A stretch of 44,163 bases of DNA from the IMG/VR virus record IMGVR_UViG_3300045988_126665, one strand, 5' to 3'. A model generated the notes under the pieces. It saw nothing but the letters and a program-made list of their open reading frames with translations, was not told the DNA's origin and ran no database searches. Made by a program: the position numbers and the translations under genes. The DNA is from a virus. This document shows positions 3,773 to 17,411 of the stretch, one piece after another (position 1 is the stretch's first letter; each line of letters begins with the position of its first letter).

Positions 3773-3958
3773 ATGTACTATTGGCTGAATGTGTTCGGAG
3801 AGGTGGAGCATAGTGACATAGAACTCTCGTGGGCGAAAGAATTAAAGCAGAGTGGCAACTACTTCCAGAGCGAGGCGGAAGCCGTATTGATGAGGATGCG
3901 AATAAGGAGGATATTGAATGCGGGTAAGGAGAAAGACAATCTGGGGGAAGATAAATAG
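3773..3958 (+). CDS. Hypothetical protein
   Basis: 61-aa ORF, GGAGG upstream, starts 2 nt after previous stop. Confidence 0.55.
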   Translation: MYYWLNVFGEVEHSDIELSWAKELKQSGNYFQSEAEAVLMRMRIRRILNAGKEKDNLGEDK

Positions 3959-4337
3959 TAATGGCGAGCTGGTGGTGCGTCTTGCGGACTTGGATGAGTT
4001 TTGCAAGATGCACCCCAATCGTTCTATCATCCTCAGAGCGGAAATACAAAGCAAAGAGCCGTCTTGCAAGTTGAAGGCATATTTCTTCGGCTATGTGATA
4101 AAGGAGGTGCAGAGGGCTTTCTACGATGCTGGGGAGGATTGCACGGAAGAACAGACCTACAACCGAATTAGGGCGGTATGCCCTTTGTTCCTTTCGGAGG
4201 AAAGGGTAGAGGGCAAGTGGAAGGTACGGATGAGGGAGTGGGAGGAATTGGACAGTGCGGAGGCGGTGGAGGTAGTCGCTTGGATACAGAGGTATATGGC
4301 GGAGAATTATTATACAATCTTGAATGACCCGATATGA
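3918..4337 (+). CDS. Hypothetical protein
   Basis: 139-aa ORF; ATG 3918 preceded by AAGGAGG (3904-3910); overlaps previous ORF by 41 nt. Confidence 0.65.
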   Translation: MRVRRKTIWGKINSNGELVVRLADLDEFCKMHPNRSIILRAEIQSKEPSCKLKAYFFGYVIKEVQRAFYDAGEDCTEEQTYNRIRAVCPLFLSEERVEGKWKVRMREWEELDSAEAVEVVAWIQRYMAENYYTILNDPI

Positions 4338-4765
4338 TAACTACAAGGGAAGAATACGAGTATGCAGTATCAAGGGGCTATGAGCCTTTGACGGATGCAA
4401 GGTTGCCAATGGACATACATCTGAGGGAAGAAATCCAAAGGGAGTTGTTCGGCAAGAACACTATGGAGGATAACGCAAAGTTCTACAAGTGGTGCATCGA
4501 GCACAAGCCGAATATCTGTGAGGAATGTGGCAAGCCCATACGATACGCAAGCGCAACGAATGTGAGCCACATACTTACTCGGGGGTCGCACCCCGAGTGC
4601 GCTCACGACCCGAGGAATGTGAATATCTTGTGTGCGGAACACCATAATCAGTGGGAGCATAGCACTACTCGTAAAGCTATGATAATCAATGCGAAGAACG
4701 AGCGGACGATAGAATTATTGAAGAAAGAATACAATTTATTGCGGAAAAATTTTGTACTTTATTGA
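4334..4765 (+). CDS. HNH-like endonuclease, putative
   Basis: 143 aa; CEECGKP...SHILTRGSHPECAHDPRNVNILCAEHHNQWEH resembles the Cys/His-Asn-His HNH core. Confidence 0.5.
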   Translation: MITTREEYEYAVSRGYEPLTDARLPMDIHLREEIQRELFGKNTMEDNAKFYKWCIEHKPNICEECGKPIRYASATNVSHILTRGSHPECAHDPRNVNILCAEHHNQWEHSTTRKAMIINAKNERTIELLKKEYNLLRKNFVLY

Positions 4766-5511: not shown

Positions 5512-5625
5512 GGCATTGTGTGGTATAATGGTATAATCGCTTGGGTATCCAGTGCAAGTAGGTGGAGTTAAATTTTAATTCGGTGGTACTGCGAGAGATG
5601 CGGGTTCAAGTCCCGCCACAATGCC
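5512..5625 (+). tRNA. Atypical tRNA-like gene (114 nt; canonical T arm and acceptor-type helix, no clear anticodon loop)
   Basis: GGCATTGTG/CACAATGCC closing helix, GG-containing D-like region, T arm GCGGG-TTCAAGT-CCCGC at 5600-5616; central arm replaced by a long irregular helix. Confidence 0.45.
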
Positions 5626-6561: not shown

Positions 6562-7159
6562 GGTATACCAAAAGAAGAACCGAGAGAGGTTGTCGCAAAG
6601 GCAGAGGGAGCGCAGGGCGGAGAAAAGGGCGGAGAGAGCCAAAAACAAGCCCGTAGAAGAGCCGAAAGAGCCAAAGCCGATAAAGAGTACCCCAAAGCCT
6701 TTAATGCCGCCTAAAACGGCCGAAAATAAGGTCGGAATAAAAGGGGAGGCAGTAAGGCGGAGTAGGGTCAAGGAGAAAAGGGTATTGGCGGTGGATGTTC
6801 CCAAGCCAATAAACGAAACTTTAATTAAAAAATTGGGTTGGATAATGAGCGAAGAAAGGAAATATATTTTATCCGAAGTGTTGTACGGAATAACTCCAAG
6901 CAAGAAGGGAACGGAATTGCGAGATGCGCTGGAATACTTTGAGAGGGTACTATTTACGGCAGAGCAGTTGGAGGTGTTTGGAACGAGGTTGAGGAAGATG
7001 GTGGTAGCGATGAACCTGAACGAGCCGAGAAATCAAATCAAGGTCATCACGGAAAGGCAGAATGAAACAATCATCGGATTTAAGTTTGAGGATGAATGGG
7101 GCAAAATAATGTTCGTAAGGTTCAAAGAAATTAAGGGAAACTATTGCGAAAGTGACTAA
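6443..7159 (+). CDS. Basic repeat protein, C-terminal part (frame +1 relative to 6232-6561)
   Basis: Frame opens at GTG 6443 right after a TGA; the same repeat motif (EKRREYDRVYQKKNRERL) continues here; 119-nt overlap with upstream ORF. Confidence 0.6.
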   Translation: MNIAKNTTRRMQTDLKSKPEPTTKRQRTEEEKEKRREYDRVYQKKNRERLSQRQRERRAEKRAERAKNKPVEEPKEPKPIKSTPKPLMPPKTAENKVGIKGEAVRRSRVKEKRVLAVDVPKPINETLIKKLGWIMSEERKYILSEVLYGITPSKKGTELRDALEYFERVLFTAEQLEVFGTRLRKMVVAMNLNEPRNQIKVITERQNETIIGFKFEDEWGKIMFVRFKEIKGNYCESD

Positions 7160-7178
7160 AGATTAGTATATTAGAGAT

Positions 7179-7451
7179 ATGAAAAATCTTATTATTATTA
7201 AGTGGTGCTTGAAGTTTTTACAAAAAAGGTGTAACATCTTTTTTATGTGCGCGTGCAACAATGGCGAGGCGTTTATCGGATTGCAAGGGAAAAAGGAAAT
7301 TTTGGATACTTGCTTGCAGGAGCTGATGAAGAACGGAAAGGATGTGAAAGAGTGGTTTATCGACGGAATGGTTAAGTATCTGGACAAGTATCAAAGCGAA
7401 AAGAAAATCTTTTTGGAAAGGTTGGAAAATGCTGAACGAGATACACAATGA
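7179..7451 (+). CDS. Hypothetical small protein
   Basis: 90-aa ORF overlapping methyltransferase start by 23 nt; no motif recognised. Confidence 0.35.
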   Translation: MKNLIIIKWCLKFLQKRCNIFFMCACNNGEAFIGLQGKKEILDTCLQELMKNGKDVKEWFIDGMVKYLDKYQSEKKIFLERLENAERDTQ

Positions 7452-8190
7452 AGATTGCCTTACAGGGATGATGAAAATACCCGACAGGTCGGTGGACTTA
7501 ATCTTGTGCGACTTGCCTTATGGCGGAGCAATCAAGCGAGGAGGAGTGGAGTGGGATGAGAAGATAGACCTTGATGCGTTGTGGAGGGAGTATAGGCGAG
7601 TAATCAAGAAAGGCGGCAACATCCTATTCTTTGCATCGGGGACATTTGTAGCGAGTGTTATTGCGAGCAATCCAAAGTGGTATAGGTACAATTTGGTATG
7701 GGTTAAAAATCGTATTTCGGATTTCTTCCACGCAAGCCAAAAGCCTATGAGTAAACACGAGGACATTTTGGTATTCGGAGCGAAAGGAAAGCACACCTAC
7801 AATAGCGGAGTGGTATCATCCCGAGGAGCCGAATACACGAAGGGCGGAGGAAAGTGCTATGCAGGGAGCATAAGGCGGAGCGGAGAAAGAAAGTCCAAAC
7901 GCAACTACCCTACCACGATACTTGAATACGCAAGCGTCCAAAAGCAGAGGGTCGCATCCGAGAAGCCGTTGGGGCTTGTGCGTAAGCTGGTGAGGATGTA
8001 TTCCAACGAGGGAGATGTAGTGTTAGACCCTTGCGTCGGGAGCGGCACCACGATAGTCGCTTGCAGGTTGGAGGGAAGAAACTACATTGGATTTGAGAAG
8101 AACGAAGAAAATTTTAAGATAGCATCCATTCGGATTGCGGAGTTTGCATCCGAGGCGGAAAATAAAAAATTGTTTGAAAATTATGGGTAA
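7429..8190 (+). CDS. DNA methyltransferase, N6-adenine/N4-cytosine (beta class, motif IV before motif I)
   Basis: 253 aa; DLILCDLPYG (D/SPPY-type motif IV) precedes VLDPCVGSGTT (FxGxG AdoMet motif I); no nuclease partner nearby. Confidence 0.9.
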   Translation: MLNEIHNEDCLTGMMKIPDRSVDLILCDLPYGGAIKRGGVEWDEKIDLDALWREYRRVIKKGGNILFFASGTFVASVIASNPKWYRYNLVWVKNRISDFFHASQKPMSKHEDILVFGAKGKHTYNSGVVSSRGAEYTKGGGKCYAGSIRRSGERKSKRNYPTTILEYASVQKQRVASEKPLGLVRKLVRMYSNEGDVVLDPCVGSGTTIVACRLEGRNYIGFEKNEENFKIASIRIAEFASEAENKKLFENYG

Positions 8191-8467
8191 CAGGTTAAAG
8201 GGGTTTTTGCGCCTGAGTGCAATCCCCAAGAATTTAGTGCAGACCACCAAGAGTGGTGCAAAGGGTGTGTATATTTCGGTGTCCGAATTGAGAGAAAAAG
8301 GAAAATTCGGGGAGACGCACACGGTAACCATCTGGGATAAGGATGCGAAGAAAGCAGTATATATTTGCGACCTTAAGCCAGATGATTGGGAAGACAGGAA
8401 GGGGGCTGAAAATTCACGAGTTGAAAATTCACGGACTGACGGGGGAAACGATGACTTGCTGTTCTGA
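8183..8467 (+). CDS. Small SSB-like protein, putative (acidic C-terminal tip DDLLF)
   Basis: 94 aa from ATG 8183; C-terminus GGNDDLLF resembles the SSB acidic tip; the last 20 codons are built from the AAAATTCAC repeats (ENSRVENSR). Confidence 0.35.
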   Translation: MGNRLKGFLRLSAIPKNLVQTTKSGAKGVYISVSELREKGKFGETHTVTIWDKDAKKAVYICDLKPDDWEDRKGAENSRVENSRTDGGNDDLLF

Positions 8468-8551
8468 GCGAAGAAAGCTAAAAATTTCGGGTGGGGTGGA
8501 AAATTCACTTCACCCGTTTTTCTTTCGAAAATTCACGGACTAAAAATTCAC
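8409..8551 (+). repeat. Five direct copies of AAAATTCAC (three extended to GAAAATTCACGGA); iteron-like
   Basis: Copies at 8409, 8424, 8500, 8528, 8543; further isolated copies at 10947 and 38961. Confidence 0.85.
8488..8525 (+). terminator. Intrinsic terminator candidate ending the early/replication operon
   Basis: CGGGTG...CACCCG stem (8488-8493 / 8511-8516) followed by TTTTTCTTT. Confidence 0.5.
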
Positions 8552-8558
8552 GGAGGTA

Positions 8559-8597
8559 GTGCCGGCTGTCTGTGCCGGCTATCTGTGCCGGCTATCC
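8559..8597 (+). repeat. 3 x 13-bp perfect-phase tandem repeat GTGCCGGCTRTCY
   Basis: 8559-8571, 8572-8584, 8585-8597; each contains the palindrome GCCGGC. Confidence 0.9.
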
Positions 8598-8607
8598 CTG
8601 TGGGTGC

Positions 8608-8624
8608 GTGCGTATAATACGCAC
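8608..8624. repeat. Inverted repeat GTGCGTA-taa-TACGCAC
   Basis: 7-bp perfect arms read directly. Confidence 0.8.
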
Positions 8625-8658
8625 GAATGTGCGGAGGCATACCCGTGGGTATCTGAGT

Positions 8659-8692
8659 TGTCCTTTTGTCGAGTATTCAGGCGAAAAGGACA
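8659..8692. repeat. 9-bp perfect inverted repeat TGTCCTTTT ... AAAAGGACA (16-nt spacer)
   Basis: Arms 8659-8667 and 8684-8692; no flanking T-tract, so not an obvious terminator. Confidence 0.8.
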
Positions 8693-8695
8693 AAA

Positions 8696-8791
8696 ACGGC
8701 CTAAATTCGGACTTATACGGCCTTATTGGTATAAGACTACCAAAACGGATTATAAACCCAAAGAAACGGCCTAAAATTAAGTCGTACGGCC
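8696..8791 (+). repeat. Four dispersed copies of ACGGCC (three as AACGGCCTAAA / TACGGCCTTA)
   Basis: Copies at 8696, 8717, 8766, 8786. Confidence 0.75.
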
Positions 8792-8821
8792 GTGTTCGTT
8801 TCTTGTCAGTAAGTCAAAGAG

Positions 8822-8857
8822 TATAAAGAGAAAGAAAGTAGGCACAAGTGGCCTACT
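8822..8857 (-). terminator. Intrinsic terminator of the AAA+ operon
   Basis: Minus-strand hairpin AGTAGGC-cacttgt-GCCTACT (8837-8857) followed by TTCTTTCTCTTT. Confidence 0.65.
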
Positions 8858-9629
8858 TTGCGTTTTCGATTGTTTCGATGTTATAATAGTCAAAGTTTGG
8901 AAAATTTTTAATCATTAAACCTTTTGCGAAAGAAGTGGAAAGGGTAGTGCCGTATCCGTTGGAATATGCTTGTATATTAGCCCTTTCCTCCAGTGCGAAA
9001 ACAACACGACGTAAAAAAGACGGGTGGCAAAGTGGAAAGGCCGTGCGAAGTAGATCAAAGTGTTCATCGGACGATTTTAGTTTAACACTCCACATAATAT
9101 ACTGTTTAATAGTTCGGAAATAAACTAAACAGCACGCAAAAAGGTTCACCCGGTAGCCTTCGGCCTCTTTTGCGTATATGTAATTAAATAGCTTTGTGGA
9201 GGCTTTGAGAATTTCATTTGCCGGGGTTGTTTGAGGGGTGGAAATGTCGTATATGATATTAAGTATCTTTGCGGACTTTGTGAAAGTTCGACGACAATTA
9301 TACATATTTACCGGATGCCCGGCCATTACCGCCCCTATATTCGGAACAAAGCCTTGCGCGGATCGGTATATCTCAATTCCGGAAGTCTTTTGCCTTTGTG
9401 CGTTTAATTTAGGTGTGTTCGGGGCTGCTAGTATTTTCTTTAATAGTTCGTTATCTCCATTTTGCAAAAGGGATAAAGCCTCTTCGAGGCTTTTTGTACC
9501 GGAAAATATGAAACTTCTTTCTGAAACATCATCAGAAGTGCGGTTTTTCTCACAGTTCGGAGTGCGCTCGATATATTTGCATACTTCCTGAACTGAATTA
9601 AAAGTAAAAATTTTGTCTATTTTCTCCAT
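8853..9629 (-). CDS. Hypothetical 258-aa partner of the AAA+ ATPase (possible degenerate vWA-like adaptor)
   Basis: Starts 8 nt after the ATPase stop, same operon; KILNIIYDISTPQT is only a weak MIDAS-like match. Confidence 0.7.
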   Translation of the reverse strand: MEKIDKIFTFNSVQEVCKYIERTPNCEKNRTSDDVSERSFIFSGTKSLEEALSLLQNGDNELLKKILAAPNTPKLNAQRQKTSGIEIYRSAQGFVPNIGAVMAGHPVNMYNCRRTFTKSAKILNIIYDISTPQTTPANEILKASTKLFNYIYAKEAEGYRVNLFACCLVYFRTIKQYIMWSVKLKSSDEHFDLLRTAFPLCHPSFLRRVVFALEERANIQAYSNGYGTTLSTSFAKGLMIKNFPNFDYYNIETIENAK

Positions 9630-9637
9630 ATCCGTAA

Positions 9638-10873
9638 CTATTTAGCAAGATTCGCAAGTGCTTTTGTATATTCGTTGTTGTTATCCATACGGCAAACGAG
9701 TTCGGAAATAACATCCTTTGAAAGTCCTTTCACAAGAGTGTTATCCAGTACCGTAGCTTTATTCATTTCCCTGAACTTATAAAGGCGTGCAATAAGTCTG
9801 TATCCGCAAATAAGGTGTATTTTTGTGTCCTTTGCTGCAAGTCGGAGGCCGTGAACAAAGCTAAAAATTTCCATATCATTACCGCAAAGGGCTTTTTCAA
9901 TTCTTTCATCATAGTCCACGGGGATAAAAATAAACCTATCTCGACTACTTTCATCCATCTGGAAACGGCCACAATATTCCTCAGTAGCGCCTAAACCGTT
10001 GGTGTTACCGGCTGCAGCACAGTAAAAATTTTCGTGCTTTTTCACTTTGCCACAGTTCGGAAAGGTGAAATAGCCGTTTGCGAGTGCTGCATTTAGAGCA
10101 ATGATAGCCTCCGCCGTGGAGTTGTCCAGTTCATCGAACATTATTAAACCGCCCTTTGTCCACGCCTCGTAAAAGGGCGTATTTTGATAGTTTCCGTTTG
10201 CGTCGGTGTATCCCGACAAATCGAACTTTGTCAAGATGGTATTTTGGTAGTAAAAATCCACATTCAAAGCCTTTGCAAGTTGCTCGCAAATAACATTCTT
10301 TCCAGAACCCGCAGGGCCGTAAAAGTATATATTTTCGCCCGCGCAAAGGTATGAAAGTGCATCAGGGAATATTTTATGTGTTAGCCCTTCTACTTTTGCC
10401 GTGCCTTTAGGCGTTTTCACCTCCAGAGCGGCCGATGATGGTGCGTTCTTTTTGAGGTCATCTATTTGCGCTTGTAGACTGGATATAACAGTATTTTGCA
10501 AGTAATCTACAAGCGGATCAAGTAGTCCGTTCGGGGTTGTTGTGTTTGTCTGTTTCATTTCAGTTTCTTTTTTAGTTTCCATTTTTTGAGTTGTGGGTTT
10601 CGGTTCACTTTTTGGGTTTACACCGACTTTTTTTGCGCAAAGTAGTAGAGGGGTGCGCGAATTGGCATTGAGTGCAAAATTTACCTCCACCATCGCATCA
10701 TCATTCTGAACTACCAAAGTAGCACAAGAAGATGAACCGTATCGAGGATGGCCAGGAACGCCAAAAAATTTAGTCTCTTCTGGAATGTTGTTTTTTGTTA
10801 CATAGTTCAGGACCTCAATTTGGAGGGCTGTAAAATTACCCCTGAGGGGTTTGTCTGTAAGTGTTTTAAGCAT
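9638..10873 (-). CDS. AAA+ ATPase, MoxR/CobS (AAA_5)-like, with unknown ~190-aa N-terminal region
   Basis: Walker A YGPAGSGKN (Asn in place of Ser/Thr), Walker B LIMFDELD, sensor AAAGNTNG, Arg motif SSRDRF; the listed 10909 start is TTG inside the promoter box, first ATG is 10873. Confidence 0.85.
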   Translation of the reverse strand: MLKTLTDKPLRGNFTALQIEVLNYVTKNNIPEETKFFGVPGHPRYGSSSCATLVVQNDDAMVEVNFALNANSRTPLLLCAKKVGVNPKSEPKPTTQKMETKKETEMKQTNTTTPNGLLDPLVDYLQNTVISSLQAQIDDLKKNAPSSAALEVKTPKGTAKVEGLTHKIFPDALSYLCAGENIYFYGPAGSGKNVICEQLAKALNVDFYYQNTILTKFDLSGYTDANGNYQNTPFYEAWTKGGLIMFDELDNSTAEAIIALNAALANGYFTFPNCGKVKKHENFYCAAAGNTNGLGATEEYCGRFQMDESSRDRFIFIPVDYDERIEKALCGNDMEIFSFVHGLRLAAKDTKIHLICGYRLIARLYKFREMNKATVLDNTLVKGLSKDVISELVCRMDNNNEYTKALANLAK

Positions 10874-10874
10874 A

Positions 10875-11067
10875 TCTAAAAATTTTGATTGTTGTCGTTT
10901 CGGATGCAAAGGTAGTTATTATTTTCGTAACTGCAAATTTTTTTGAAAAATTCACTCAAATAATTTGCATAAACTTTGATGAAAAATAAAAATAATTGTC
11001 TAAAAATTAGCTGTTTACAAAAGTAAAAATTTCCGTCTAAAAATTTCGGTTGGAGAAATCTAAAAAT
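10875..11067 (+). repeat. Four copies of TCTAAAAAT around the AAA+ operon promoter
   Basis: Copies at 10875, 10999, 11036, 11059. Confidence 0.7.
10907..10914 (-). promoter_or_regulatory. Bacteroidota-type -7 box TACCTTTG (minus strand) for the AAA+ operon
   Basis: Plus-strand CAAAGGTA; 34 nt upstream of ATG 10873. Confidence 0.6.
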
Positions 11068-11097
11068 ACCCGCCGGGGGTGTTGTGCCTGTTTGCTC

Positions 11098-11133
11098 GGG
11101 GTTCAGGGGTTCAGGCGGTGCAGCCGTGCAGCC
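11098..11133 (+). repeat. Two adjacent tandem octamer duplications GGGGTTCA x2 and GTGCAGCC x2
   Basis: 11098-11113 and 11118-11133 read directly. Confidence 0.85.
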
Positions 11134-11230
11134 GTGGAGAGCCTCCAGTAATCGAGTGGTCAGTTCAAACAAACCCACGGAGTGAAAAAAGCCCTTTATT
11201 TGCGTTTATAGGTTGTTGGTGGTATCGTTA

Positions 11231-11238
11231 TACCTTTG
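11231..11238 (+). promoter_or_regulatory. Orphan plus-strand -7 box TACCTTTG inside the minus-strand island
   Basis: TAnnTTTG; no credible ORF before the hairpin at 11322. Confidence 0.45.
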
Positions 11239-11321
11239 CGACATATAAAGCCGTTTATTTGCCCTCAAATTGAGTTACACGGCAAAAGACAGAAAGACAA
11301 GGACCGAATAAAAAAGAAAAA

Positions 11322-11339
11322 AGCCCCTCGAAAGGGGCT
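11322..11339. terminator. GC hairpin AGCCCCT-cgaa-AGGGGCT; terminator for the minus small-ORF operon, possibly bidirectional
   Basis: 7-bp stem; on the minus strand it is followed by TTTTTTCTTTTTTATT. Confidence 0.7.
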
Positions 11340-11362
11340 AAGCTATTTAATTCGCACAATTT

Positions 11363-11524
11363 TTATACAACGTCCAGTATCAGCCAAAATTCTAACTCCT
11401 TTATATAAAGGCTTATAAGATTGTAAAAGGGCCCAAGCCTCAAGCGTTGCACAATATAAAGGTTCATCTTCGGCAAAAAATCTGATATATAAAGAGATTT
11501 GTAATTTTCTGTTTTTCTTTTCAT
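11363..11524 (-). CDS. Hypothetical small protein (53 aa)
   Basis: ATG 11524 lies 21 nt after the upstream stop; ends 24 nt before the terminator hairpin; below the ORF-track cut-off. Confidence 0.35.
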   Translation of the reverse strand: MKRKTENYKSLYISDFLPKMNLYIVQRLRLGPFYNLISLYIKELEFWLILDVV

Positions 11525-11545
11525 AACATCTTAATTTTAAGGGGT

Positions 11546-11824
11546 TTATAAAATTATATACGAGTTATAAGCCGTCTCCACCCGCAAGCCCTCGGCCGTT
11601 TCAAAGGCGTAGGTGAAAAAGTTACAAGTATGAGATATGATATAACCTAAACTTGTAGCATTCTCTTCTTGCCTTTTTTTTTCGCAAAGGAATAAGGCCC
11701 TTTTTTTCGCCGAACTGCAAGATGCATAAACGTCGTGTAAAGATGTAACATGATTTTGCCTTGAAATCTCGAAAGCGTGCAAAAACTGAAGTCCTTTTTG
11801 TGAATTTTTAGAAATGTGTTTCAT
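11546..11824 (-). CDS. Hypothetical protein (92 aa)
   Basis: ORF with its own promoter box at 11893-11900. Confidence 0.6.
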   Translation of the reverse strand: MKHISKNSQKGLQFLHAFEISRQNHVTSLHDVYASCSSAKKRALFLCEKKRQEENATSLGYIISHTCNFFTYAFETAEGLRVETAYNSYIIL

Positions 11825-11892
11825 AAATAAAATTTTTTAATAAGTAAGTAAATAAATATCATTGTTCAGGCTTTCCTCTCTGAACTCGATTG

Positions 11893-11900
11893 CAAAGGTA
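11893..11900 (-). promoter_or_regulatory. Bacteroidota-type -7 box TACCTTTG (minus strand)
   Basis: Plus-strand CAAAGGTA upstream of the 11824 start; hairpin GTTCAG...CTGAAC lies in the leader. Confidence 0.55.
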
Positions 11901-12307
11901 TAACGGATTTTCGATATATGCAAATTTTCTATTAAATTTTCTTCACCTTTTTTGCATATATTTTATTATGTTCTTGAGTTTCAATAGGTTGCAAGGTTAA
12001 AATTTTTTTGAGCGAAATAAGAAAATACAGATAAACGCAGCTACTTATATCTCTGGATGCAGTAGGTTGTTTACGCCTTTATTTGTATATATGTAGCTAG
12101 GTTGCTTTCGCTTTTGTAGGGGGTTACCTTTCGTGATGCGCTTATTACTTTCACGTCCCCAAAATGTAATCCTCTCATTTTCACCCACTTAAACCCCGAT
12201 ACTTATAGTATTACTTTAAGTAGAACGCACCACGGAGCGCACTCAGATAGCACCCAAAGAAAGGCGCAAAGCCAGCCAGAAGGGGCGCTAGCGAAGTAGC
12301 TCAAAAT

Positions 12308-12385
12308 ATACAAAAAGTCGCTTTTTTGCCGTTTTGGTCTCCGAAAACACGGGGAAAACACTTTTTGGGACTTACAAAAAGTCGC
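12308..12385 (+). repeat. Direct repeat TACAAAAAGTCGC x2, 64 bp apart
   Basis: 12309-12321 and 12373-12385. Confidence 0.8.
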
Positions 12386-12432
12386 ATTTTAGGCAAAAAG
12401 GGGCAAAAGATGATAAAGGGGCGTTACACATC

Positions 12433-12472
12433 TGGACATCTGGACGCCTGGACGCCTGGACGCCTGGACGCT
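12433..12472 (+). repeat. 5 x 8-bp tandem repeat TGGACRYC (TGGACATC, TGGACGCC x3, TGGACGCT); pac/terS-site candidate
   Basis: Perfect head-to-tail phase, 175 nt upstream of terS. Confidence 0.9.
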
Positions 12473-12541
12473 CGGTGCGTCAAGCACTTCGGAGAGCAGC
12501 CACGGGGCGACATAACTAACAAGGTGGGGGCTAATCTGACA

Positions 12542-12572
12542 CCCCCGGGGGCGGAGCGGTGGAGGGGGGGGG
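12542..12572. repeat. C5G5 palindrome (12542-12551) and G9 homopolymer (12564-12572)
   Basis: Read directly; the most GC-rich patch of the window. Confidence 0.85.
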
Positions 12573-12619
12573 AGTTAGTCCGCCCATAGTGCGCGGTACT
12601 AAAATTAAGAAATAAAGTG

Positions 12620-12627
12620 TATCTTTG
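12620..12627 (+). promoter_or_regulatory. Bacteroidota-type -7 box TATCTTTG for terS-terL
   Basis: TAnnTTTG 20 nt upstream of ATG 12647; GGAGG at 12635-12639. Confidence 0.55.
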
Positions 12628-12646
12628 TGAGAAAGGAGGAAAGAAA

Positions 12647-13180
12647 ATGGGAAAATTGGACAATACATCAGTAGAGCGGAGGGTAGGAGTGATGCGAGAT
12701 TTGTCGGAGGGTGAGACTATGAGTGCGGTTGCGAGGAAGTACGGGATGGGGAGTAATACTGTGAGGGACATCAGGGGGGAGGCATTAGAGGCTTGGAGAG
12801 AGGCGAACATAGGGGCGATGGACGATATGATAAGTAGGGAGATGATGCGTATAGACAGTTTGGAGGAGGTAGTGATGCGGGACTACGAGAACAGCAAGCG
12901 TTCGTTAAAGCCTATGGAGTATGCGGCATTGATGGCGAGGGGGTTGAGTATGGACGAGATAGACGAGTGTTTTGCGAGCAGGCCTCAGAGTGGAGACCCG
13001 AGGTACTTGGACACTTTGTTGCGCATTGGGATGCAGAGGATGCGATTGATAGGTGCGGTTGGCAGGAGTGATAGGCGGAAGCAGACTATCAACCAGTACA
13101 ACTTCGGGAATTTGAGTGAGGAGGATATGCGCAGGATAGTTGGAGAGATGCAGGACGGCAAGTACAGGGAGGGCAGGTGA
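12647..13180 (+). CDS. terS: Terminase small subunit, putative
   Basis: 177 aa from first ATG (the listed 12617 start is GTG upstream of the promoter box); N-terminal HTH-like SAVARKYGMGSNTVRDI; stop overlaps terL start. Confidence 0.6.
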   Translation: MGKLDNTSVERRVGVMRDLSEGETMSAVARKYGMGSNTVRDIRGEALEAWREANIGAMDDMISREMMRIDSLEEVVMRDYENSKRSLKPMEYAALMARGLSMDEIDECFASRPQSGDPRYLDTLLRIGMQRMRLIGAVGRSDRRKQTINQYNFGNLSEEDMRRIVGEMQDGKYREGR

Positions 13181-15669
13181 TGAACGAGGAGATGTATGCG
13201 GAGCAGATGGTGCGGTATATGTCGGAGCGTGATTTGGGGATATATCTGCGTTATTTGCATCCAGAGTTAGAGATGACGAAGTGTCATCGTAACTACTACA
13301 AGATACTAAACAAGTTTGCTCACAAGGAGGTTAAGAAGTTAATTATCAGTGCGCCTCCTCAGTTTGGAAAAGCATTGAGGATAGATGAGCCTGTATTGAC
13401 TACAGGGGGGTGGAAGAGCCACGGAGAGTTAGTAGAGGGCGACTATGTGTTTGGTGAGGACGGAAAGCCGAAGAGGGTATTGTGGAATAGTGGTGCATAT
13501 AGTTGGCGTACGAGGAGGGTAGAGATGGCAGGCGGAGAGAGTATGGTATGTGCGCCAGAGCATTTGTGGAAGATATATTCCGACCACGATGATAGGAGGG
13601 GTCGTGTAGAGGAGATATTGGAGACGCAGAACATTTTCAATCGTAAGCATCGTAGACATCCGTACATAGCGGTCAATCGTGCGATAGAGTGCGAGGAAAG
13701 GGAGTTGCCTATTGAGCCGTATTTGTTAGGGTATTGGCTTGGGGATGGATATTCTCGTCAGGGCAAGATATGTAGCGGAAAGGAGGATGCTTGGAATTTG
13801 AGCCGGTTTGGTGTTGTCGAGGAACGCAAAGGTGGCAAGATGTACATAGTTAGGGTAGAGGGTTTGTCGAAGAAGTTGAGGGAAAACAACCTAATACAGA
13901 ACAAGCATATTCCCGAGGAATACTTTTTAGCATCCGTCGAGCAGAGGCTGGCATTGTTACAGGGCTTAATGGACACGGACGGATACGCATCGAAGAGGGG
14001 ATATTGTGAGTTTTGTCAAAAGGAGGGTCAGTTAGGCGAGGATGTCTATACTTTGCTCCGAAGTTTGGGATACGAGCCTACGAAGAAGTACGAGAGGGCT
14101 ATGTGTAATGGCAAGGATTGTGGCAGGAAGATACGCATCACATTCAGTCCCGACAAGGGGGATGAGTTATTCCGCTTGCCGAGAAAGCAGGCGAGGGTAG
14201 ACAACAAGGAGGCAGTAGACCGAAATGACAAGAAGAAGTTTTTCATCGTTGGTATAAGGGAGAGCGAGGACACAATGGTTAATTGCATCCAAGTAGAGGG
14301 TGGTATGTACCTTGCTGGTCGTGCGCTTATCCCTACCCACAATTCCGAGGGAAGCAGTAGGGGATTGCCGAGTTTTCTTATGGGTATGCGTCCGAGTGAC
14401 AGTATAGTTATTGGTAGTTACAACACGGAATTGGCGAGGACGTTCAATTCGGATGTACAGAGGTGGATGCGCACGGATGCTTATGGTGCGGTCTTTCCTA
14501 ACACTATCATCAGTGACGGCAGGGAGAACAGGGAGTACAAGTGCAACGCGGACGAGACGCAGGTAGTCGGTGAGGACGGCAGTGGGTTGAGGGTAGTCGG
14601 CAGGGGCAGTTCGTTGACTGGTAGAAAGGTGGATGTAATGATTATGGACGACTTGTACAAGGACTACAATGAGGCGAGCAGTCCGATAGTGCGGAACAAG
14701 ACTTGGAGGTGGTACACGAGTGTAGTCTTGTCCCGATTGCAGGATTGGGGACAGCAGTTGATGGTGTTCACGAGGTGGAACGAGGATGACTTGATAGGAC
14801 GGATTATGCAGACGGAGAGGGTAGTGAAGATAGAGAGGTGGAGCGATTTAGACAAGGTTGGTGACGATTGGGCGTATGTGAACTTTCCGGCTATCAAGGT
14901 GGGCGCTCCTACGGAGATAGACCCGAGGGAGGATGGTGAGGTAATTTTCCCGAGCCATAGTAGTTTGAAGACCTTGTTGGCGAAGAAGAGGGCTGACCCT
15001 TATGTGTTCGAGTGTTTGTATCAAGGCAATCCGTTCAGTGAGGACAACAAGTTGTATGGTGAGTTCAAGACCTACACGGACAAGGGCGAGTATGGAGTAT
15101 TGGTGCGCAAGGGGTGTTGCATAGACGTAGCTGGCAAGGGAGGGGATGACACTTGCAGTATCTGTTACGATGTGTATAGGAGCAAGAACAATGTGTACAA
15201 TGAGCAGACGAGGCGGTTTGAGCCTTTGGTATTCATATTGGTGACGGACATTTACTTGAGCAATGCTGGAGTAGAGGAGACGAGCATAGTGATACCTCAA
15301 CAGATAAATATGCAGGGCAGTCAGGTTGTGTGGTGCGAGCGGAATGCAGGTGGAGAGCAGTTCGGAATGAGTATAGCGAAGAAGGTGCGTGCGAAGATAG
15401 AGTTGTATTTCAGTGAGGGCAACAAGGAGGCGAGGATTATCAATTCGGCTGGGGATGTAATGTCTCAGATTATCTTTCCGTTGGGGTGGGAGAGCAGGTG
15501 GCCGAAGGCGTTCAAGGAGCTGGACGGCTTTGTTAGGCATTTCAAGGCGAATGCGCACGACGATGTTCCGGATGTATTGAGCAGTATTGTACAGAGGGAG
15601 ATACTATGCAAAAATCCCACACGAGGATATGTGGGATTTAGGAATAGGGGCATTAGGAGGGCGAATTAG
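13180..15669 (+). CDS. terL: Terminase large subunit, intein-containing
   Basis: Walker A PPQFGK|S split by insert; Walker B VDVMIMDDL; nuclease-domain acidic motifs downstream; TGATG coupling to terS. Confidence 0.9.
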   Translation: MNEEMYAEQMVRYMSERDLGIYLRYLHPELEMTKCHRNYYKILNKFAHKEVKKLIISAPPQFGKALRIDEPVLTTGGWKSHGELVEGDYVFGEDGKPKRVLWNSGAYSWRTRRVEMAGGESMVCAPEHLWKIYSDHDDRRGRVEEILETQNIFNRKHRRHPYIAVNRAIECEERELPIEPYLLGYWLGDGYSRQGKICSGKEDAWNLSRFGVVEERKGGKMYIVRVEGLSKKLRENNLIQNKHIPEEYFLASVEQRLALLQGLMDTDGYASKRGYCEFCQKEGQLGEDVYTLLRSLGYEPTKKYERAMCNGKDCGRKIRITFSPDKGDELFRLPRKQARVDNKEAVDRNDKKKFFIVGIRESEDTMVNCIQVEGGMYLAGRALIPTHNSEGSSRGLPSFLMGMRPSDSIVIGSYNTELARTFNSDVQRWMRTDAYGAVFPNTIISDGRENREYKCNADETQVVGEDGSGLRVVGRGSSLTGRKVDVMIMDDLYKDYNEASSPIVRNKTWRWYTSVVLSRLQDWGQQLMVFTRWNEDDLIGRIMQTERVVKIERWSDLDKVGDDWAYVNFPAIKVGAPTEIDPREDGEVIFPSHSSLKTLLAKKRADPYVFECLYQGNPFSEDNKLYGEFKTYTDKGEYGVLVRKGCCIDVAGKGGDDTCSICYDVYRSKNNVYNEQTRRFEPLVFILVTDIYLSNAGVEETSIVIPQQINMQGSQVVWCERNAGGEQFGMSIAKKVRAKIELYFSEGNKEARIINSAGDVMSQIIFPLGWESRWPKAFKELDGFVRHFKANAHDDVPDVLSSIVQREILCKNPTRGYVGFRNRGIRRAN
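13372..14343 (+). mobile_element. Intein (324 aa) with LAGLIDADG homing-endonuclease domain, class-3-type signature
   Basis: Begins ALRIDEPVLTTGGW after GK, ends LIPTHN before Ser; LAGLIDADG motifs at 13723-13755 and 13954-13992; block B EHLW, block F VNCIQVE, block G PTHN. Confidence 0.85.
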
Positions 15670-16226: not shown

Positions 16227-16787
16227 CTATTTACCTGTTGAGCCGTAGCCGTTAGTACCTCTGTCGGTGGATGAGAGTTCATCCACTTCTTCAAATTCAA
16301 TTTGAGGGATTGGCATTATTATCATCTGGGCAATTCTTTCTCCAACTGCATATAGGCGAGGAAGAAAAGGCGTGTAACCTTGTGGGACATCTGGGTAGCA
16401 ATCTTGTCTACCATAGAATGTAACGAAGCTATCATCCCACTCCGTTTCGTCTATGCCGTACCAATCCGTTTCGTCCTTTCCGATTTCTTTATTAGTCGCC
16501 ACCACTAATGTAGGCTTGAATTTAGCCGTCACTTCGCCCCTGTAATGGGCATCTATAACGGCAACCGCATTGGATAGGGCTAAATCTTTCCGACAGATAG
16601 AGCTACGAGGGAAAATCAAACCTACATAGCCTTCTGGGATTTCAAAGGCAAGCCCAAAGCCATAGGTGACATTGCCTTCCGCATCAAATACACGGCTTAC
16701 GGCAGTCAAATCAAAGCCGGCATCGGTAGGGTGCGCTTTACTTGGCAAGACTGCATCTTCTCTTAATTTCTTTACTTTTACTTTCAT
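16227..16787 (-). CDS. dut: dUTPase (trimeric type) with a ~40-45-aa insertion between motifs III and IV
   Basis: Motifs AGFDL, PRSS, IDAHYRGEV, GERIAQMI, RGTNGYGSTG; first ATG after the promoter box is 16787. Confidence 0.9.
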   Translation of the reverse strand: MKVKVKKLREDAVLPSKAHPTDAGFDLTAVSRVFDAEGNVTYGFGLAFEIPEGYVGLIFPRSSICRKDLALSNAVAVIDAHYRGEVTAKFKPTLVVATNKEIGKDETDWYGIDETEWDDSFVTFYGRQDCYPDVPQGYTPFLPRLYAVGERIAQMIIMPIPQIEFEEVDELSSTDRGTNGYGSTGK

Positions 16788-16886
16788 AATAAACAAAAAG
16801 CCACTCAATATGTGAGAGAGGATTTTCTGATGCGAAAAATACATATCAAGTGGCCGTATTGTTATATCTCTATTCCTCTTCTCACT

Positions 16887-16904
16887 ACAAAGATAGTGAA
16901 AATT
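16887..16904 (-). repeat. 18-bp repeat ACAAAGATAGTGAAAATT, copy 1 (contains the dut -7 box TATCTTTG at 16888-16895)
   Basis: Identical to 17394-17411. Confidence 0.9.
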
Positions 16905-17235
16905 CGTGAACCTCCAAAGTTCAATACATATCGGGGTCTTTTAATCCCTCATACCCAATCAAGGTCAAAGAATCAAAACTAAGGCTTTGGCCGAAATTTT
17001 GCCATTCAAGTCGTTCTCGCATCCCCGTTTTGTTTTTGTGCGTGGCTTGAATCCCCCCTCTACACTTTCGTGCCTTTTAGGTTGCTCCACAAGGTTGTAT
17101 GAGGTCGTATGATGTGAGTAGCACAGAGCATACACTTGAAAAGTTCCTTGTGCGTATGTTGCAAGGCTTGCAGTTGGATTGAGTTTATAGGGTCTATCCG
17201 TATCAACACCCTCTCAGTCAAAGTACATTTGTCTA

Positions 17236-17273
17236 TCAAACGAAAAGCCCCCCGAAATTTGACTTCCGAGGGG
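17236..17273 (-). terminator. Strand-specific intrinsic terminator
   Basis: Minus RNA CCCCUCGGAA-gucaaa-UUUCGGGGGG (10 bp, two G-U pairs) then CUUUUCGUUU; the plus-strand version has two C-A mismatches. Confidence 0.6.
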
Positions 17274-17286
17274 CATCTTTTTGCAC

Positions 17287-17385
17287 CTACATACACTCCA
17301 AAGAGAGTATAACGGGGATAGCTGCAAAAGATATATTCCGTATATTTCCTTTGTATAACCACCAAGTCCCCATCTCGGCAATCAT
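17287..17385 (-). CDS. 32-aa hydrophobic-tailed peptide, candidate small gene
   Basis: ATG about 10 nt after the -7 box at 17395-17402; stop 14 nt before the terminator; MIAEMGTWWLYKGNIRNISFAAIPVILSLECM. Confidence 0.3.
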   Translation of the reverse strand: MIAEMGTWWLYKGNIRNISFAAIPVILSLECM

Positions 17386-17393
17386 TTGATACC

Positions 17394-17411
17394 ACAAAGA
17401 TAGTGAAAATT
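17394..17411 (-). repeat. 18-bp repeat ACAAAGATAGTGAAAATT, copy 2 (contains -7 box TATCTTTG at 17395-17402)
   Basis: Identical to 16887-16904. Confidence 0.9.

Follow-up and report, generated by a model that had tools for sequence, protein, structure and literature searches.

We describe a pair of adjacent phage genes that probably encodes an old remodelling machine, likely directed at the host. The pair was found in a viral DNA stretch of 44,163 nucleotides (nt) (IMG/VR record IMGVR_UViG_3300045988_126665, hereafter the window), which corresponds to a nearly complete tailed-phage genome of about 44 kb. Both genes belong to an island read from the minus strand between positions 8822 and 11900. 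One encodes a MoxR-class AAA+ ATPase of 411 amino acids (aa), counted from its ATG (9638-10873, minus strand), and the other a 258-aa protein of the DUF7192 family (8853-9629, minus strand), whose start codon is located 8 nt past the ATPase stop codon. In the machine that we propose, the DUF7192 protein would be a dedicated adaptor with a fold resembling the von Willebrand factor A (vWA) domain, through which the ATPase would remodel a client. The ATPase open reading frame (ORF) could be extended to a TTG codon at 10909, and this longer version would take in the promoter; because the ATPases of the relatives begin at an ATG, the start was placed at 10873. Together with two smaller ORFs located upstream, these genes make up the four minus-strand ORFs that an initial annotation of the sequence had delineated, all of which were recovered with unchanged boundaries.

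The ATPase matches the Pfam family AAA_5 (40.6 bits for a cut-off of 22, E = 3.2e-10) and, over residues 96-393, PHROG 249 (E = 2e-49), whose members are CobS-like phage proteins and whose label is 'porphyrin biosynthesis'. By sequence, the ATPase is matched best in the PDB by an AAA module of midasin. The AlphaFold model of the protein was built on 57 homologues and has a mean predicted local distance difference test score (pLDDT) of 75.5. It contains an N-terminal alpha+beta domain (residues 1-82, nt 10628-10873), a disordered low-complexity linker (about residues 84-119), a long helix (119-143), a beta-hairpin (149-162) and an AAA+ core (169-411). Within the predicted core, short strands or a hairpin at 222-230 are inserted ahead of helix 233-240, and another hairpin, at 268-278, precedes the sensor-1 strand (283-288). 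The combination of a helix-2 insert and a pre-sensor-1 insert marks the MoxR/CobS group (CobS preprint, bioRxiv 10.64898/2026.07.21.739949), and the two modelled elements correspond to these inserts. Searching the PDB with Foldseek placed CbbQ2 at the top (6l1q, E = 4.3e-11, TMt 0.67), followed by many NorQ entries (E about 1e-10), cso-CbbQ and Rea1; the 21 best structural matches are all CbbQ or NorQ, and Rea1 comes next. CbbQ2, NorQ, cso-CbbQ and Rea1 all work with vWA partners bearing a MIDAS (metal ion-dependent adhesion site). The MoxR/CobS-type AAA+ identity given in the initial annotation is therefore borne out by the AAA_5 match and by the closest structures, CbbQ and NorQ.

The motifs quoted in that annotation, GPAGSGKN, LIMFDELD, AAAGNTNG and SSRDRF in the ATPase and IIYDISTP in the partner, all occur exactly in the translations. 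The Walker B motif LIMFDELD (10124-10147, minus strand), which contains D247 and E248, is invariant in two alignments; the sensor-1 region AAAGNTNG is located at 9995-10018 and the arginine-finger region SSRDRF at 9932-9949, on the same strand. Six distant phage homologues (29-32% identity) all retain residues D247, E248, N290, T291, D312 and R313. Judging from their positions, D247/E248, N290 and R313 would be the Walker B residues, the sensor-1 asparagine and the arginine finger, respectively.

The Walker A motif (GPAGSGKN, residues 186-193; 10295-10318, minus strand) carries an asparagine, Asn193, at the usual Ser/Thr site and does not fit the canonical pattern GxxxxGK[ST]. This asparagine had been pointed out as atypical; it is present, but it is not a peculiarity of this gene. 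The form GxxGxGKN is invariant in 57 relatives belonging to the clade of the window, is common to the Kayvirus and Enterococcus phage homologues, and is also carried by bacterial ATPases at three loci (L020, L023 and L025). The canonical GKT form occurs in the homologues from Listeria, Rhizobium, Mycobacterium and Acinetobacter phages and in two bacterial ones. Since GKN and GKT forms both adjoin a DUF7192 gene, with the remaining catalytic residues intact in both, the asparagine is best regarded as a tolerated family polymorphism and not as evidence of inactivity.

A region of about 190 aa at the N-terminus of the ATPase had been left unassigned in the initial annotation. Only about the first 95 residues proved to be lineage-specific, whereas residues 96-165 are included in the family profile. 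A search of residues 1-85 against 1.84 billion representative sequences returned 12 hits, all of them same-family fragments or spurious repeat proteins. By this measure, the N-terminal domain appears to be an orphan specific to the clade of the window; the Kayvirus protein is devoid of it, and that of the Enterococcus phage begins with a different N-terminal region.

The partner protein matches Pfam DUF7192 (PF23822; 93.5 bits for a cut-off of 27, E = 1.9e-26) and PHROG 1909 (E = 1.5e-31). Its AlphaFold model has a pLDDT of 88 and a predicted template modelling score (pTM) of 0.80. The five best Foldseek matches of this model in the PDB are all NorD chains from NorQ-NorD complexes (best E = 4.5e-5), with Foldseek probabilities of 0.99-1.00 for four of them and 0.72 for the fifth; the matched chains are the vWA chain of NorQ-NorD structures determined by cryo-electron microscopy in 2026. 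Weaker PDB matches are also vWA proteins, namely a TFIIH subunit, complement convertase entries (9qk2, 9u62), TRAP and vWF A1. In the BFVD database, 12 other DUF7192 proteins came first (TM-scores of 0.60-0.73), followed by about 12 proteins of phages or archaeal viruses annotated as CobT-like or vWA (E = 1e-6 to 4e-3). Foldseek searches of AlphaFold models, which the initial annotation had suggested as a check, therefore led to CbbQ/NorQ for the ATPase and to NorD vWA chains for the partner. From the model, we are fairly confident that the partner has a reduced vWA-like adaptor fold without a working MIDAS, and each of the two predicted folds leads, independently of the other, to one half of a single kind of complex. 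The partner had been described as short, with a weak D-x-S match, and as falling outside the rule that MoxR ATPases work with vWA proteins; the length and the weak match were correctly noted, but the predicted fold resembles NorD and CobT-like vWA proteins, so that the pair would follow the rule in a reduced form.

The position equivalent to the MIDAS reads D128-I-S-T-P, a degenerate DxSxS (9234-9248, minus strand), and is found in the model after strand 122-128 and before helix 137-156. The family consensus at this position is N-x-S-x-S, with Asp in 12 of 77 members. Given such a degenerate MIDAS, any bound client would not be held via the canonical metal site. According to column statistics over the 77 sequences, the most conserved motif of the family is AFPLCHPSFLRR (9006-9041, minus strand), in which R207 is invariant. 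The model also displays a long beta-hairpin at residues 160-185 (9075-9152, minus strand), made of strands 160-171 and 176-185. The base of this hairpin is nearly invariant (G158, Y159, V161 and K185), and its tip is variable, with insertions and deletions.

The ATPase-DUF7192 pair is not a newcomer in this genome. The initial annotation had considered the island as a recent acquisition (a moron) and had suggested comparing its presence or absence across related contigs. The pair occupies this same locus in 9 of 9 related contigs (L005-L013), where it is encoded on the opposite strand between the N6/N4 methyltransferase and terminase genes, the methyltransferase gene being followed by a conserved gene of 94-110 aa; only the adjoining slot of small ORFs is patchy. 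Synteny holds at ATPase identities of 92, 86, 68 and 51%, and at partner identities of 90, 75, 52 and 37%. In the three relatives that were measured, the G+C content at third codon positions (GC3) is 0.34-0.44 for the pair and 0.51-0.71 for the flanking terminase and methyltransferase genes. The window shows a similar deviation. The AT-richness and the preference for AAA codons stated in the initial annotation were confirmed by measurement: the GC content is 0.393 in 8822-11900 versus 0.449 elsewhere, which makes the island the lowest-GC 3-kb stretch of the window; GC3 is 0.388-0.396 in the four island ORFs versus a mean of 0.543 in 36 plus-strand ORFs (Mann-Whitney p = 0.0012); and the ratio AAA/(AAA+AAG) is 0.70-0.74 in the two large genes versus a typical 0.3-0.4. 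As the same locus is occupied in all nine relatives and the same low GC3 recurs in three of them, the deviation is old and maintained and does not reflect a recent transfer. We conclude that the pair is an old, vertically kept part of a Bacteroidota phage lineage.

A recent moron that came from an AT-richer donor and provided exclusion or anti-defence would have explained why the island has its own promoters and terminators, why it is the lowest-GC segment of the window with a deviating codon usage, and why the small-ORF slot truly differs between relatives. This scenario now appears very improbable, given that the pair keeps its locus even where protein identity has fallen to 37-51%, that its GC3 is equally low in the three relatives measured, and that the dUTPase unit (16227-16844; GC3 of 0.41 and 0.46 in this unit) and several tail genes of the window are similarly AT-rich at third positions. 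The initial annotation had also named, as the outcome that would overturn its view, clear homology to a characterised housekeeping pair with conserved synteny and no compositional deviation. Synteny is indeed conserved, but no characterised housekeeping homologue was found and the composition still deviates.

The association between the two genes extends far beyond the relatives of the window phage, the ATPase and DUF7192 genes being adjacent, or nearly so, in every lineage examined. They are adjacent in L005-L013, in a second gut lineage (L003, L004, L017 and L018), in Kayvirus (L002, gp041/gp040), in Listeria phage LP-124 (Pecentumvirus, gp093/gp094), in an Acinetobacter phage (L027, gp070/gp069; hhalign probability 98%) and, with the order reversed, in an Enterococcus phage (L001). 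Two small ORFs lie in between in Rhizobium phage P106B (L015). In Mycobacterium phage Faith1 (L016), gp136 and gp135 are adjacent and there is a DUF7192 paralogue, gp127; the two paralogues are located at 3785-4636 and 7485-8336, and in cluster L gp135 is found beside the ATPase gene and gp127 about 3 kb off. Using tblastn against GenBank phages, we detected the ATPase in 416 records and the partner in 322. All 236 matching Staphylococcus phage records appear in both searches, and the ATPase was detected in 70 Listeria phage records, including P100-like Pecentumvirus, and in about 80 mycobacteriophages. Megablast of region 8000-13000 against the same phages gave no match, so that the window has no annotated close relative in the GenBank phage collection.

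The pair also exists in cells. In three Bacilli-type contigs (L019, 717-5945; L020, 288-5918; and L024), an operon encodes, in this order, TelA, a conserved protein of about 415 aa without family, an AAA_5 ATPase of 603-727 aa and DUF7192. A scan of a genome collection for cellular DUF7192 yielded only four loci, all in metagenome-assembled genomes, and PADLOC gave no meaningful match for the proteins of the TelA operons. Public records call DUF7192 hypothetical, and a full-text literature search for DUF7192 returned no paper; the Kayvirus and Listeria phage transcriptome and proteome papers make no mention of the gene. In the second gut lineage (L003, 3172-5514; L017, 6018-8778; and L018), after the pair come an ORF of 127 aa, an ArdA-like gene and a serine recombinase/invertase gene, and a DNA methyltransferase gene is located upstream of the pair on the other strand. 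The ArdA-like anti-restriction protein matches PHROG 2059 (E = 5.5e-7).

Among characterised systems, both halves of the pair match NorQ-NorD best in structure (E about 1e-10 between the ATPase and NorQ, and 4.5e-5 between DUF7192 and NorD). In NorQ-NorD, a MoxR AAA+ ATPase works with a vWA partner to insert iron into nitric oxide reductase (structures 9qh4-9qhg, PMC13036017). The two systems also share adjacent genes with the ATPase first, as well as the helix-2 insert and the pre-sensor-1 hairpin. On the other hand, there is no sequence similarity between them. Whereas NorD has about 600 aa, the phage partner has 258 and lacks the long N-terminal domain and the linker, besides its degenerate MIDAS; the phage ATPase differs from NorQ by its GKN Walker A motif and by an extra N-terminal domain of about 165 aa; and the pair is viral, with no metalloenzyme client in sight. 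CbbQ2, from the CbbQ-CbbO Rubisco activase, matches the ATPase model better in structure than any other single entry, and the CbbQ-CbbO mechanism is a remodelling mediated by an adaptor. However, CbbO has about 770 aa and a functional MIDAS, and the Rubisco client is irrelevant to this phage and its host.

The likeness to CobS-CobT comes from PHROG 249, a CobS-like phage family. Phage CobS/CobT-like pairs resemble ours in that the structural matches of the partner that come right behind the DUF7192 proteins are CobT-like vWA proteins, and the gene order is the same in gp72/gp71 of Gordonia phage GMA7. In contrast to CobS-CobT, there is neither an equivalog match nor CobN, and the phage partner lacks the M48C-like N-terminal domain of CobT. 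The comparison with GMA7 by hhalign gave nothing for DUF7192 and the CobT-like protein, and only generic AAA+ similarity (E = 5e-4) between the GMA7 ATPase and our ATPase profile. True homologues with the same domain pair and adjacency are found in Kayvirus, LP-124 and Faith1; their identity is 25-36%, and the clade of the window adds its own N-terminal domain. The ATPase-DUF7192 pair of the bacterial TelA operons is homologous as well, the L020 ATPase being also of the GKN form. Unlike their phage counterparts, the cellular ATPases have 603-727 aa, with a long, charged N-terminal region in L020, and are joined to the TelA-family and 415-aa proteins. Functional precedents, and no more than precedents, are provided by p618/p892 of Acidianus two-tailed virus (ATV) and by gp0063 of phage Bas54, virus-encoded MoxR-class ATPases (with a vWA partner in ATV) that act in accessory remodelling (PMC7824862; bioRxiv 10.1101/2025.11.20.689424).

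By analogy with NorQ-NorD and CobS-CobT, the phage ATPase would assemble into a hexameric ring on which one DUF7192 adaptor would dock, forming a physical complex in which a finger of the adaptor enters the central pore. The beta-hairpin 160-185 is our candidate for this finger, the NorD finger (PMC13036017) and the CobT shaft serving as the models for the proposal. In CobS-CobT, the shaft of CobT enters the CobS ring and the client subunit binds to the far side of CobT (bioRxiv 10.64898/2026.07.21.739949). ATP-driven movements of the phage ring would similarly pass via the adaptor to a bound client, which would be remodelled in consequence. The N-terminal domain of the ATPase, carried by a flexible linker, probably recruits or localises the client. 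With a host-type promoter and a terminator of its own, the operon could be transcribed by the host RNA polymerase with no help from phage factors, and expression may be early. The term remodelling module, used in the initial annotation, remains a fair description of the island.

What the client might be is suggested by indirect evidence. Our best guess is a host protein or complex, remodelled for takeover or counter-defence, rather than a structural protein of the phage. The autonomous host-type promoter points to an accessory, probably host-directed function, and so does the variable small-ORF slot directly upstream. The ArdA-like neighbour in L003, L017 and L018 likewise points to an accessory role. 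In L008 (5303-5305) and L009, whose ATPases are 92% identical to that of the window, a TAC-to-TAA change introduces a nonsense codon at Tyr183, just before the Walker A motif, and the partner gene is intact; this allele may be a natural loss of function, as expected for an accessory gene. In P0228, a protein of 202 aa, the N-terminal domain of the ATPase is directly fused to DUF7192's C-terminal half. It resembles the product of a deletion of about 1.5 kb across the pair, which would again point to an accessory role, but it may instead be an assembly chimera. As a precedent, phage Bas54 depends on its MoxR ATPase (gp0063) to get past the predicted defence system DS-28 (bioRxiv 10.1101/2025.11.20.689424); in phage rV5, the stretch from 30 to 75 kb contains no MoxR gene.

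Several of our results count against a vWA-like adaptor serving a host-directed ATPase, and they have to be weighed together with the other explanations of the pair. The TM-scores of the partner are only 0.27-0.31 to NorD, with a root-mean-square deviation of about 10 Å, and only 0.27-0.38 to the vWA and CobT matches in the PDB and BFVD. A DUF7192 profile of 77 homologues found nothing in the PDB by sequence, and none of the 77 members matched Pfam VWA or CobT at E values up to 1. Alignment of this profile by hhalign to the 607-aa CobT-like vWA protein of Gordonia phage GMA7 gave a probability of 0.3%, so that the link of DUF7192 to vWA proteins is structural only. The MIDAS pattern DxSxS...T...D is not conserved in DUF7192, no downstream Thr or Asp being conserved, and the invariant residues G93, P106 and R207, like the H202-P-S motif, are found away from the MIDAS position. 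One could therefore regard DUF7192 as a substrate, a regulator or an enzyme organised around AFPLCHPSFLRR, which the ATPase would activate or unfold, its likeness to NorD being a Rossmann-like coincidence. Weak matches to PD-(D/E)XK nucleases would agree with an enzyme, but they occur far down both Foldseek lists with probabilities of 0.02-0.44, and we rejected the nuclease assignment. We consider a protein unrelated to vWA distinctly unlikely, since the five best PDB matches are all NorD, about 12 viral matches are annotated as vWA or CobT, the ATPase independently matches NorQ and CbbQ best, and strict adjacency to a MoxR-class ATPase is typical of vWA partners. As for the ATPase itself, Asn193 replaces the Ser/Thr that coordinates Mg, so that its activity is a prediction. 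Finally, the label 'porphyrin biosynthesis' of PHROG 249, repeated in many GenBank phage records, would turn the pair into a genuine cobaltochelatase motor of the CobS/CobT type, an auxiliary metabolic gene serving the biosynthesis of porphyrin or cobalamin. The chance that this label is right seems negligible to us: there is no match to NCBIfam CobS/CobT equivalogs or to Pfam CobS/CobT domains at E values up to 1; the partner has only 258 aa and lacks both the long linker and the canonical VWA of CobT; the sole ORF above 830 aa in the window is a 1012-aa gene, not itself annotated, located in the tail module, which leaves no CobN-sized ORF outside this module; and the same pair occurs in Staphylococcus and Listeria phages and in TelA operons.

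The same machine could instead serve the phage itself, as a chaperone that helps to assemble virions or the machinery of replication or packaging. A published source, which cites ATV, proposes viral MoxR-vWA chaperones for virion assembly and attributes tail development to ATV p618/p892 (PMC7824862). The location of the pair between the replication module and the terminase genes agrees with such a role, as do the conserved flanking repeat arrays, which could be ori or pac elements. The presence of the pair in 236 of 236 matching Staphylococcus phage records, in either search, fits a general phage function equally well. Moreover, the nonsense allele might have arisen from an error of sequencing or assembly, and the two records that carry it may come from one sample; NCBIfam and PADLOC provided nothing useful for any of the four island proteins, the only PADLOC match being a P-loop-only match to IetA (E = 0.028). 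Against a phage client stand the orientation of the operon, which is read from the opposite strand, is separate from the structural genes and uses a host-type promoter and a terminator of its own; the natural relatives with a nonsense allele and a deletion-like protein; the neighbours of the pair in Kayvirus (L002) and in the Acinetobacter phage (L027), which are mostly small uncharacterised ORFs and not structural genes; and the cellular homologues in TelA operons, with no virion genes nearby. An assembly or packaging chaperone is thus possible but, in our estimation, rather improbable, and we place the host-directed function ahead of it without strong confidence. A more elaborate form of the host-directed function can also be imagined, in which the pair would be a widespread machine captured from, or aimed at, a TelA-linked MoxR-vWA module of envelope stress or defence, and would dismantle or hijack a host assembly early in infection; its N-terminal domain would set the target, and the upstream ORFs would form an anti-defence island anchored by the pair. 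We hold this scenario, taken as a whole, to be speculative and doubtful.

The transcription signals of the island were analysed at the motif level. The Bacteroidota promoter pattern TTTG-N17-21-TAnnTTTG has eight matches in the window versus 1.05 expected by chance, and we therefore assign the host to the Bacteroidota, in agreement with the host assumed in the initial annotation. Two of the eight matches coincide exactly with the two promoters proposed in that annotation. The promoter of the ATPase-partner operon (10907-10937, minus strand) consists of TTTG, 19 nt and TACCTTTG, and is located 34 nt 5' of the ATPase ATG. The other, identified by the pattern scan (11893-11924, minus strand), precedes by 69 nt the ATG of a 92-aa ORF (11546-11824, minus strand), itself followed by a 53-aa ORF (11363-11524, minus strand). 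Two intrinsic terminators had also been predicted, and both were found: at 8835-8859 (minus strand), a 9-bp stem followed by a T-rich tail overlaps the partner stop codon, and at 11322-11339 (minus strand), downstream of the small ORFs, a GC-rich 7-bp stem is followed by TTTTTTCTTTT. The proposed organisation of the island into two self-contained minus-strand transcription units is in line with these motifs. A further full match to the promoter pattern (9856-9888, minus strand) falls within the ATPase gene, towards its 3' end and some 230 nt upstream of the partner start. A TACCTTTG box on the plus strand (11231-11238) faces the terminator at 11322-11339; a plus-strand small RNA between 11244 and 11348 was set aside, as this box is devoid of a proper -33 element and the T-run of the hairpin is on the minus strand.

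Hypervariable small ORFs fill the slot that separates the small terminase gene from the ATPase promoter (11825-12616 in the window, and its equivalents in L005-L012). In this slot, L008 has a gene of 131 aa, L010 one of 118 aa and L012 one of 60 aa, and L005-L007 have genes of 80-101 aa; most of these genes show no mutual similarity. A variable cargo slot hence adjoins a conserved anchor, the pair. One intact homologue of the 92-aa ORF of the window is encoded in L006 (38% identity, E = 5e-10), and L010/L011 contain a frameshifted version; the ORF is probably a real accessory gene. For the 53-aa ORF we found no intact homologue, its sole trace being a frameshifted copy in L008/L009, and its status as a gene appears doubtful. 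Neither the 92-aa nor the 53-aa ORF could be assigned to a family in Pfam, PHROG, NCBIfam or PADLOC.

The clustered 9-mers and repeat arrays reported around the island in the initial annotation are present. The sequence TCTAAAAAT occurs five times in the window versus 1.0 expected, always within 10875-11812. Four of these boxes are located at 10875-11067 (plus strand), one in the 5' leader beside the ATPase start codon and three upstream of the promoter; this four-box layout recurs in L008 and L010, and two boxes are found in L012. The sequence AAAATTCAC occurs nine times versus 0.94 expected. Five copies, counted within 8409-8551, form an array (8405-8551, plus strand) at and downstream of the convergent gene 8135-8467, with two boxes falling within the 3' end of this gene. 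This cluster, downstream of the partner gene, is kept in the same place in all relatives, including those at about 51% ATPase identity. The TCTAAAAAT and AAAATTCAC boxes are all on one strand, and at 11800-11812 and 8539-8551 the two 9-mers merge into (T)CTAAAAATTCAC. The boxes are conserved cis elements and are probably sites for a phage DNA-binding protein, which may act in island regulation, replication or packaging. The convergent gene itself (8135-8467, plus strand) encodes 110 aa and is kept in all relatives at 66-93% identity; it matches no Pfam or PHROG family.

GC-rich direct repeats are present in the non-coding DNA surrounding the island, at 8559-8596 (GTGCCGGCTATCT, 2.9 copies), at 11098-11136 (GGGGTTCA and GTGCAGCC, about two copies each) and at 12432-12471 (CTGGACGC, five copies). 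In L012, a long related repeat (7041-7277) is readable as a repeat peptide. The GC-rich repeats near the terminase genes may be pac or ori elements.

The rest of the genome is organised as follows. The left arm, on the plus strand, encodes a DnaB-like helicase, a Holliday-junction resolvase, an HNH endonuclease and the N6/N4 DNA methyltransferase. From 12.6 kb on, the plus strand carries the small and large terminase, portal and head genes and tail-sized ORFs. Minus-strand coding is limited to two short stretches, the island (8.8-11.9 kb) and a dUTPase unit (16.2-17.4 kb). This second unit (16227-17395, minus strand) comprises the dUTPase gene (205 aa, 16227-16844) and a 111-aa ORF, and a Bacteroidota-type promoter (16888-16918, minus strand) precedes the dUTPase gene. 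The large terminase (13177-15669, plus strand) has 830 aa versus 505-507 aa in the relatives. A LAGLIDADG_3 domain occupies its residues 255-306, within the N-terminal ATPase part, and the insertion is probably an intein with a homing endonuclease. At 5514-5624 (plus strand), an Rfam tRNA match of 35.7 bits exceeds the gathering score and displays a 47-nt insertion in the anticodon loop, and ARAGORN reported no tRNA at this position. This locus may hold a tRNA gene that is split by an intron or interrupted in some other way.

Neither MoxR-vWA pairs nor CobS/CobT-like genes in phages are new. What our analysis adds is that DUF7192 would be a cryptic vWA-like partner without MIDAS, as judged from the predicted fold, and that its strict neighbour in widely different phages belongs to a distinct subfamily of AAA_5; also new are the bacterial, TelA-linked version of the pair and the GKN/GKT polymorphism. 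The pair reaches relatives of phage K, phages from therapeutic cocktails, P100-like Listeria phages and gut Bacteroidota phage contigs. Many records call the ATPase 'porphyrin biosynthesis' or CobS, which would wrongly mark it as a metabolic gene, and the evidence presented here argues against this label. The link with bacterial TelA operons and the tolerated asparagine of the Walker A motif provide further leads. If DUF7192 is a reduced vWA-like adaptor, two hypothetical genes become a testable mechanism, with a predicted complex, a finger that would enter the pore of the ring, and a client to be remodelled.

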